A stretch of DNA of 64,000 nt from NCBI RefSeq assembly GCF_013167455.1, contig NZ_CP038328.1; one strand, given 5' to 3'. Shown here in pieces: positions 42,401 to 45,400 of this stretch. Origin of the DNA: Escherichia coli O157:H7. Lineage in GTDB: Bacteria; Pseudomonadota; Gammaproteobacteria; Enterobacterales; Enterobacteriaceae. A program made the position numbers. Numbering within the stretch: the first letter of the stretch is position 1; each line of letters opens with the position of its first letter.

Positions 42401-45400
42401 AGACCGCCTGTTTGAAAGGCTGGTGCAGGCGCTTAGCCAGCACGCAAAATAAAGGTATAACCTGCGAGCATGACGCCACCAATTCCGCCTAACGCCATAA
42501 ACAGGAACAGGGCGATGACCCCAATTTTAGCTATGCGCATAATGCACTCCTTATGTTAACGAAAGGATTGTACAGTAAAGCGCATTTGTTAACGAATCAT
42601 TAAATGCCGAGTGGGAAAATATCATGGCCTTGTTCTTGCCAACTGGTGAGTTGCTGCTGTTGGGCGGAGGTTCGATTTTCACCGCACCACACCAGCAATG
42701 TACGGCCTTCGAATAGTTCAGGGCGTAGTTGATTGAGCGAGTGGGCGAGGACATCAATGCGCCATCCTTGTTGACTGGCAATCCAGCCCTCCAGCCACAG
42801 ACGGGTGGTATCCTGAATATTCCAGCCAACCACCAGCGCATCTTTACCCTGTTTTTTACGTGCCGAAGCCAGACAAATGGCGATGTAGTTGATCAGTACG
42901 CCGTCGAGGATCGCCAGCAGCGCCTGGAGAGTCGGTTGTTGGTACTGAAGCCGTCGGCGCAGAGGAATAAACAGATGTGTGGTGAGCGTCTGGGCGGGGT
43001 AATCCTGACCGCGCTCTTTGATCCACGTTCGCAGGCTATGCAGATTGCCGCTTTGCAGGTAGGTCAGTAATGTTTCTTGCTGATCGCGCCAGCCGTTCTG
43101 CACATCAACATTTTCATTACTGAGCAGCATTTTAACTTTGCTGACCTGCACGCCGTTGTCGATCCAGCGTTTGATCTCGCGGATCCGGTCAATATCGGCA
43201 TCGTTGAACAGCCGATGACCGCCGTCTGTCCGTTGCGGTTTCAGCAATCCGTAACGCCTCTGCCACGCGCGTAACGTGACAGGGATTAAGGGTAAACTAA
43301 TTGATTTTGCAAGTTTTTATTTTACCCTGCTTTCTTATGGGGCATACATGGGACACTTTCAGATAGTCTTTTGTTAAGGAGTTCTATCTGTTCGTGATTG
43401 TTGTCTTTCATCCATGCTCCGTAAACATTGAATACCATTTGTGCGTTTGTGTGGCCCATCTGGCTTGCGATAAAACTAGGATTAGCTCCTGCGGCAAGTG
43501 ACCAGCATGCATAAGTATGCCTGGATTGGTACGATTTTCTGTGTCTCAGACCTGCGCGTTTTAAGATACTTGTCCATGACTCCCTGATGGAGTCAACCTT
43601 GTAGTGAGGTCCGGACAACTGCTGCTGTTTTGTTACCTGAGGACTAAAAACAAAAGTGCATTTATGCACAGCAGTTCTCCCATATTCCCTCTGCTTCACC
43701 TCTACAGAATGTTGCTTTCCAAGCATGGTCATTTCCGCCTGGCTTTTAAGAGCATCAATAGCTGGTTGAACCAGATGAATTGTCCTTCCGGTGCCTGCAT
43801 CGGTTTTTGGTGGAGTGAATTCGCCAAGTTTTGTATAATTTCTACGGATGGTTATAGTCCTTGCTTTAAGGTCTATATCTTCCCATGCCAGCGATACCAA
43901 CTCCCCGTGACGAATACCCGTGTATACAGCGAGAATCCACAGGTTTTTTGTTTGTTGATGACGGCAAGCCTCAATAAAACGAATAAATTCGTCACGGGTG
44001 AGAGGATCTGGTTTTACCTTGGACTTTTTTAAGGGAGCCAGACCGTTAAATGGGTTTCCTGAGGTATAACCATTATCTGTTGCAAATTGAAACATTCCAG
44101 CTATGGTTGTCATATAGTAGTTTACCGTGACCACTGAGCGCCCTTTTATGGAAGAAGTCTTTCCATTAGAAAGCTTTTGGTAACCGGTCAACAAATCTCT
44201 CCTTACGAAAAGTAAATCCTCTTTTGTTATGGATGAAACCAGTTTTTTTTCACCTAACATTGGTAACATGTTTTTAATTACTGACTGGTAACGGTTAAGT
44301 GCATTCGCACAAATCTCAATTTTCTTAAGGTCCAACCATTTTTCCGAAAGTGCCTTAACGGTTATCTCTCTTTTTCCCAGACCAAAGTGTTTCAGGTTAG
44401 GGGAATTAGGGAACTGCGCGGCGTAGTCGAAACTCCCCATTCTGATTGCAAAACAAACGGAAGTGCGAAGTTCACCAGCGATCTTCCGGTTTTTGGCTGT
44501 GTCAGGAACACCGAGGTTTTCTCTGACACGTTTGCCATTATAGTGAAACCATATACGGAGTGATCCGCCATGGTTTTCAACGCCTGTCGGGTATGATGCG
44601 TTACTCATTAAACCTCCCAGACGTCCAGGAGCATTAACAGGTTAACCGGAACTTGCATTTTTGGCACCTGGTTGTTTCTGGTTTTCGATCCATCGCATAA
44701 TTTCTTCGATGTTGTACAGGCATTCACTGTAATGCCCAGGATCACCTTCTACAGCGTAATGGCGGTATTCTTTTCCCTGCATCCATGACTTTCTTCTGGC
44801 CCGCTCGATGGTGCCGGGCTTTAGCCCTGTTGATGCAATAAGGACTCTCTCCGTACACCATTTGCTGGGGGTTATCTGATAGATGATTGTCTGCATGCCA
44901 ACCTCATAAAACTTTCATCCACGGCAGTGGCACCACACGTCAAACATTCGTTTCACAACTTCACGGCAGTAGAAGCCGTCGACATCACGGGTCAGGTCGT
45001 AGCGATTGCCGAATGTCTTGCGAACCCAGAACTCAAAAGCCGTATGCATGTATCACCTCCGTTGCATTGCGCGTAATTTTTTCAGGCGCATTTCCTGCTC
45101 AGTGCCCGCCAGAATTTTGCGGTACTCCTGTTGGTCAATATGTTCGAACAGGTTGTTGAACTCACCAATGCGTACCCGTCCGGAGCGCCCGTCCATGCGT
45201 CGAAAGAACACTGAGTGCTGAGTACTGCGAGTAATCACCACAGGGTATCCGGCTCTGTCCGTGTATATCTGACCACGTTGAATCAGAGCGAACATTCCTT
45301 TATCCCCAGCGGAAAAGCGAATACAGAATAAATGCCACCGCTATTGCAACTCCAACTGCGGTGAATGCTTCAGGCCAATTCATCATTTCACCTCCTGCGG

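Follow-up and report, generated by a model that had tools for sequence, protein, structure and literature searches.

A lambdoid prophage of the VT1-Sakai/CP-933V backbone has very probably integrated into the curli regulator gene mlrA (yehV) of the Escherichia coli O157:H7 strain studied here, separating the promoter and the 5' codons from the rest of the gene and leaving no functional MlrA. The analysis is based on a 64,000-nt stretch of its chromosome (contig NZ_CP038328.1, assembly GCF_013167455.1), hereafter the window, for which a prophage within mlrA had been proposed from the sequence beforehand (the original prediction). The window holds the int-proximal end of the prophage only, and the far end was taken from near-identical related complete genomes. 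The feature is the prophage insertion at yehV/mlrA that is textbook knowledge for O157:H7, ordinary and already known in all respects tested, and only the exact core and junction coordinates, an occupant without Shiga toxin (Stx) genes and a caveat on annotation are added here. It is established that this insertion explains the curli-negative state and the poor csgD-dependent biofilm of most O157:H7 isolates, and that O157 lineages have classically been typed by whether yehV is occupied. The insertion was reportedly described by Yokoyama in 2000 and by Shaikh and Tarr in 2003. It is also found in the work of Uhlich from 2013 and 2016, in the part of it that is cited in PMC5931665.

The junction between mlrA and the prophage

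The minus-strand remnant of mlrA aligns to K-12 MlrA (243 aa, from NC_000913.3) over K-12 residues 17-243 with 226 of 227 identities (BLASTP, E=1e-170), and no part of residues 1-16 aligns to it. Translation of the minus strand of 42600-43346 ends in DIFPLGI followed by the stop codon, and the codon of P17 (43283-43281) is the first point of protein identity. Nucleotide likeness to K-12 extends past P17 as far as about 43289 (TTAAT) if one inserted nucleotide is allowed for, so that the original prediction had correctly placed the end of the similarity near this position at the nucleotide level, protein identity ending at 43283. Only 4 nt differences from K-12 were found over the 684 nt downstream of the junction, three of them synonymous and the fourth leading to C130Y. 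The latter (codon at 42895-42897, minus strand) is the sole amino-acid change in the remnant, which is free of frameshift and nonsense decay although it is cut off from its promoter.

Upstream of the remnant, the phage arm contributes only 11 in-frame codons; the in-frame TAA in front of them (43319-43317) ends the open mlrA frame on this side. No ATG, GTG or TTG is present in the remnant frame between this TAA and 43247, where a TTG, the earliest canonical in-frame start, would give a protein of 215 aa. The 47-nt 5' end of mlrA was not found in the window in a search allowing 3 mismatches. Thus, the remnant has no promoter, ribosome-binding site (RBS) or start codon of its own and lacks codons 1-16. 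A fusion providing a new N-terminus, which would have spoken against the disruption, was rejected by translation, with 11 phage codons after a TAA, no canonical start, and an integrase gene that ends in another frame.

Table 1. Features of the mlrA insertion and its occupant in the window
Feature	Position	Strand	Remarks
mlrA (yehV) 3' remnant	42600..43283	-	codons 17-243 and stop codon
20-bp attachment (att) core CACGCGCGTAACGTGACAGG	43264..43283		within mlrA codons 17-23; strand exchange within it
Phage-derived arm between core and int stop codon	43284..43321		holds TAA 43319-43317
Int-proximal 20.7 kb of a ~46 kb lambdoid prophage	43284..64000		runs off the window end
Tyrosine integrase (int), 428 aa (WP_000063648.1)	43322..44608	-	directly upstream of the remnant, same strand
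Excisionase (xisR), 84 aa	44642..44896	-	phrog_539, 1.6e-37; RefSeq annotation
Three tRNA genes	61763-62014	+	downstream of Q; ARAGORN: Met(CAT), Arg(TCG), Arg(TCT)

The att core (Table 1) marks the break. It occurs once in the empty site of K-12 and at both prophage ends in strains Z570 and EDL933, and its columns are invariant in an alignment of the K-12 attB, the window junction, the far junctions of Z570 and EDL933, and the attP region of phage vB_EcoS_phi330 (phi330). Host sequence lies on one side of the core and phage sequence on the other, a reciprocal pattern as expected for site-specific recombination, and an imperfect likeness to attB reaches beyond the core to 43289. The phage-derived arm that follows is 100% identical to VT1-Sakai and phi330. 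The window junction is the int-proximal end, i.e. attL by lambda convention. The record of phi330 (PV189401.1), deposited as a ‘complete phage genome’, shows two tandem copies of the core around position 255-300, with the dinI-side arm and the int-side arm to either side. Such a doubling looks like prophage ends that were joined without losing either copy of the core, and not like a true attP. We therefore set phi330 aside as an independent attP, and it supports only the contiguity of the two phage arms.

In close relatives, the missing 5' part of mlrA was found at the opposite end of the prophage, beyond the window, where the original prediction had expected it. In EDL933 the far prophage end abuts a 66-nt coding sequence (CDS) labelled ‘incomplete’ beside btsS, and in Z570 it likewise abuts a 66-nt stub beside btsS, about 48 kb and about 46 kb away from the remnant, respectively. 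The 22 codons of the stub translate to MALYTIGEVALLCDINPVTLRA followed by a stop codon (Z570). Nothing has been deleted from mlrA, as stub codons 1-22 and remnant codons 17-243 rebuild all 243 codons, their overlap being the core. The host flanks are collinear with K-12 (yehW-yohO-mlrA' / prophage / 'mlrA-btsS versus yehW-yohO-mlrA-btsS), and together with the core shared by the K-12 site and both prophage ends this bears out a prophage within mlrA. The far junction of the source genome is expected to read ...GTTGCGT-CACGCGCGTAACGTGACAGG-GTTAATATCACAAAGC..., with the mlrA start and btsS coming next.

Genes for a tyrosine integrase and an excisionase adjoin the junction, in keeping with site-specific integration into yehV/mlrA. 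The integrase carries the Pfam domains Arm-DNA-bind_2 (1.2e-23) and Phage_integrase (1e-17), matches phrog_1 (1.8e-83), and is 100% identical to the VT1-Sakai integrase (AP000400) at the nucleotide level, while integrase and arm together are 98-99% identical to several Stx-converting phages. The integrase gene does adjoin the break, as the original prediction stated, but 43322 is its 3' end, the stop codon, and not its beginning. Integrase gene and remnant point the same way, with 38 bp between them. A consensus scan, which is weak evidence either way, found no promoter-like site on the minus strand, nor a terminator-like site on the minus strand of the spacer (43284-43321). The arrangement resembles that of lambda at attB, where an arm-binding-domain tyrosine integrase and an excisionase likewise lie by the junction and a short core is doubled at the ends. 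Unlike in lambda, the mlrA target lies inside a coding sequence and a host regulator is inactivated; moreover, the 20-bp core is unrelated to the lambda core.

Loss of MlrA function and the fate of the remnant

Integrase-mediated site-specific recombination at the 20-bp core in mlrA codons 17-23 has very probably parted the mlrA promoter, the RBS and the first 16 native codons from the other 227 codons. The promoter-side parts then sit next to btsS, about 46 kb off, in the form of the 22-codon stub. Without functional MlrA, the RpoS-dependent activation of csgD, curli and biofilm would be lost or reduced, in line with what has been published on other O157:H7 strains that share this junction. 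Lesions in rpoS occur commonly in O157:H7 and hide the mlrA effect. Since int, xis and the two att sites are all intact, the block can probably be undone, mlrA being rebuilt by precise excision. Further, phage transcripts may run into the remnant because int and remnant are co-oriented. Beyond the observed anatomy, core, distribution and absence of stx, we draw on the literature or on deduction where this strain's phenotype, excision and run-off transcription are concerned.

Published data on occupied strains agree well with these expectations. The link from MlrA to csgD and curli, on which the original prediction had relied, is documented (PMC3874044, PMC5931665). Occupied strains do not express mlrA and were deficient in curli and biofilm (53/55 O157:H7; PMC3874044), and Congo red binding and curli came back in two out of four non-O157 E. 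coli strains that produce Shiga toxin (STEC) and have the insertion when mlrA was provided in trans (PMC3874044). Prophage occupancy of mlrA exceeds 95% in clinical O157:H7 isolates (PMC5931665), and native mlrA is regenerated by spontaneous and induced excision, as seen for Sp15 in Sakai and in PA20 (PMC5931665). In PA20, excision from mlrA restores curli and biofilm according to Uhlich 2016, to the extent that this work is cited in PMC5931665. After SOS induction, the distal mlrA fragment undergoes run-off transcription (about 20-60-fold by quantitative reverse transcription PCR) and csgD is not raised (PMC5931665). The geometry of the window, with co-oriented genes 38 bp apart and no terminator-like site in the scan, fits this run-off result. 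A regulator interrupted by a prophage and restored by precise excision is likewise known from the Listeria phage phi10403S in comK (regulatory switch/active lysogeny). Unlike in the phi10403S/comK system, survivors that have lost the prophage from mlrA are seldom obtained, and a programmed cycle of non-lytic excision is not known for mlrA (PMC5931665).

The domain content of the remnant argues for a broken regulator. In intact K-12 MlrA, residues 4-72 are covered by positions 1-68 of the Pfam model MerR_1, while the remnant matches this model only at positions 16-68, with positions 1-15 gone. In the MerR fold, helix 1 of the helix-turn-helix (HTH) comprises residues ~5-13, and the second (recognition) helix and the wing come after it. 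The lost part would thus be helix 1 of the HTH, with the second helix and the wing kept. This assignment rests on Pfam model positions and the general knowledge of the MerR fold since there is no solved structure of MlrA, the closest being CarH/TTHA1280-type regulators (E ~1e-14). The original prediction was right that the start codon and N-terminal HTH residues are absent, but the loss concerns the first 16 residues only; hence, ‘HTH missing’ overstates it, yet the MerR domain is broken. Two things that a functional MlrA needs are therefore not found in the remnant, i.e. a complete N-terminal MerR-type HTH domain and its own promoter, RBS and canonical start. The domains MlrA_helical (PF22270, 3.1e-31) and MlrA_C (PF22267, 1.5e-33) are complete.

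Three points weigh against a prophage insertion that abolishes MlrA. The far junction lies outside the window, so we infer integration in this exact genome from near-identical genomes. RefSeq/PGAP annotates the remnant (42600-43301, minus strand) as ‘HTH-type transcriptional regulator MlrA’ (WP_027868261.1, 233 aa), with an ATT start at 43301 in phage-derived sequence and no pseudogene flag, and its score against the MlrA equivalog model NCBIfam NF011617 exceeds the cut-off (510 versus 417 bits), the alignment starting only at profile position 16. Moreover, recombinant distal fragments are said to restore some Congo red affinity in the results that PMC5931665 cites, so that ‘completely null’ may be too strong a term.

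The last two of these points also feed the strongest alternative, according to which the remnant is still a working gene. Read-through from int or the early operon would then be translated into an MlrA with a changed N-terminus, of 233 aa if it starts at the ATT (43301) or 215 aa if at the TTG (43247), that keeps some residual or modulatory activity, for instance by way of its helical and C-terminal domains. The frame is indeed open for 233 codons, these two domains are complete, the remnant has one amino-acid change from K-12, the integrase gene is co-oriented without a terminator-like site in the scan, and distal mlrA RNA rises with SOS induction. Nevertheless, we consider a working remnant unlikely: the absence of ATG, GTG or TTG before 43247 makes the ATT start an annotation device, no minus-strand promoter-like site was found, and the MerR HTH model has no counterpart for its first 15 positions. 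Further, curli and biofilm are deficient in occupied strains, intact mlrA rescued two non-O157 STEC that carry the insertion (PMC3874044), and strongly expressed distal fragments left csgD unraised (PMC5931665).

A more elaborate version of this idea would regard the remnant as a phage-controlled gene. On SOS induction, run-off transcripts from int or the early operon might give rise to an MlrA with a crippled HTH, whose start would be the TTG at 43247 or an internal Met. With its helical and C-terminal domains kept, this protein would modulate the curli/c-di-GMP switch, and in combination with reversible excision the prophage would act as a conditional biofilm regulator in the style of active lysogeny. 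We regard this as a long shot. The idea of an active distal fragment is already in print (Uhlich et al. 2016, as far as it is cited in PMC5931665), and if true, a phage-controlled remnant would be an extension of this published idea and not a discovery.

The loss of functional MlrA by prophage insertion remains the reading that we favour, and it has a practical consequence for comparative genomics. Surveys of gene presence that are based on annotation would count mlrA among the genes of all 452 occupied genomes described below and miss the disruption.

Identity and distribution of the occupant

In its visible part, the prophage has early and replication genes, an immunity region, Q and three tRNA genes. 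It is 99.98% identical to the prophage of O157:H7 strain Z570 over 20.7 kb (2 mismatches and one 2-bp indel), and the chromosomal flank (1-42589) differs from the same strain by 3 mismatches over 42.6 kb. The Stx1a prophages Sp15/VT1-Sakai (strain Sakai) and CP-933V (EDL933) in yehV/mlrA share with it the same integrase (VT1-Sakai), att core, insertion point (codons 17-23) and orientation. The segment from int to exo is 99.96% identical to CP-933V, and the window prophage diverges beyond. In this diverging part lie a SIR2-family gene (535 aa), genes for an XRE-type repressor and YdaS/YdaT-like proteins, and a pair of genes with a HEPN domain. CP-933V is about 48 kb long and carries stx1a, whereas the window copy has the tRNA trio instead of stx1AB as well as a different immunity/replication module. 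This trio fills the interval where CP-933V has stx1AB, and the next gene is a DUF6645 open reading frame running off the window. RefSeq calls the first of the three tRNAs tRNA-Ile versus Met(CAT) in ARAGORN.

Stx1A and Stx1B had no tblastn match in the window, so the pair of stx1 genes downstream of Q that characterizes an Stx1-converting phage is lacking there. Likewise, no stx is annotated in the whole Z570 prophage, the comparison with the window extending over the shared 20.7 kb. Judging by its gene content, the occupant is a non-Stx variant of the VT1-Sakai/CP-933V (Sp15) backbone. The original prediction had named yehV as the site of Stx1-converting and related prophages, which is correct for the site, although the occupant here is a non-Stx relative and not an Stx1 converter. 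A non-Stx lambdoid occupant of yehV is known from stx1-negative O157:H7 such as TW14359 (PMC8309913). The yehV prophage of these strains (TW14359, the UK PT21/28 ‘Z’ strains, strain 9000), whose occupancy is described in PMC8309913, has essentially the same sequence as the window prophage, with no substantive difference (2 single-nucleotide polymorphisms and a 2-bp indel compared to Z570).

The possibility that the inserted element is the Stx1-converting phage (CP-933V/Sp15) itself draws on the identity of integrase and arm to VT1-Sakai and of the int-exo segment to CP-933V. We regard it as highly improbable given the missing Stx1A/Stx1B matches, the tRNA trio and DUF6645 gene at the stx1 position downstream of Q, an immunity/replication region unlike that of CP-933V (SIR2, XRE repressor, YdaS/YdaT), and the Z570 prophage without annotated stx.

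The 2.3-kb junction yehW-yohO-mlrA'-int was 100% identical in 452 out of 5,426 complete E. coli genomes, including O157:H7 EDL933, PA20, 86-24 and SS17, while at least 80% of the visible prophage was present in 116 genomes. We searched the same 5,426 genomes with a 400-bp attB probe centred on the K-12 core, which was intact in 4,944 and split in the rest. No genome had more than two places for this probe, which implies that split genomes hold no additional intact mlrA. A second intact mlrA in occupied genomes, which the original prediction had named as an observation that would overturn it, was therefore rejected.

That the truncation represents a deletion, a rearrangement or an assembly chimera instead of site-specific integration, for which only the single junction visible in the window might speak, is almost inconceivable in view of the same junction in 452 independently finished genomes, a far junction with the same 20-bp core and exactly the missing 5' codons, the contiguity of the two phage arms in phage records, and an mlrA gene that loses none of its 243 codons.

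Accessory genes of the prophage and its chromosomal flank

The SIR2-family protein (535 aa, 51143-52750, minus strand) is encoded between kil/early-left genes and the XRE-type repressor. It has a full-length match to the PADLOC candidate defence model PDC-S25 (2e-235) and a weaker one to the SIR2 region of ThsA (1e-21), and it is absent from the retrieved part of CP-933V in EDL933. These matches suggest that it is probably a prophage-borne anti-phage gene. In the nin region, two small overlapping genes of 138 and 133 aa were found (58379-59175, plus strand). The 138-aa gene is annotated as HEPN-domain-containing and has a weak match to PADLOC PDC-M28A (1.8e-7), and the pair could be a toxin-antitoxin or defence pair. 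The chromosomal flank contains a LysR regulator and a 3-hydroxybenzoate/gentisate catabolic cluster (21582-27592) between yohJ and dusC, consisting of mhbT, gtdA, a FAH-family hydrolase, maiA and 3-hydroxybenzoate 6-monooxygenase.
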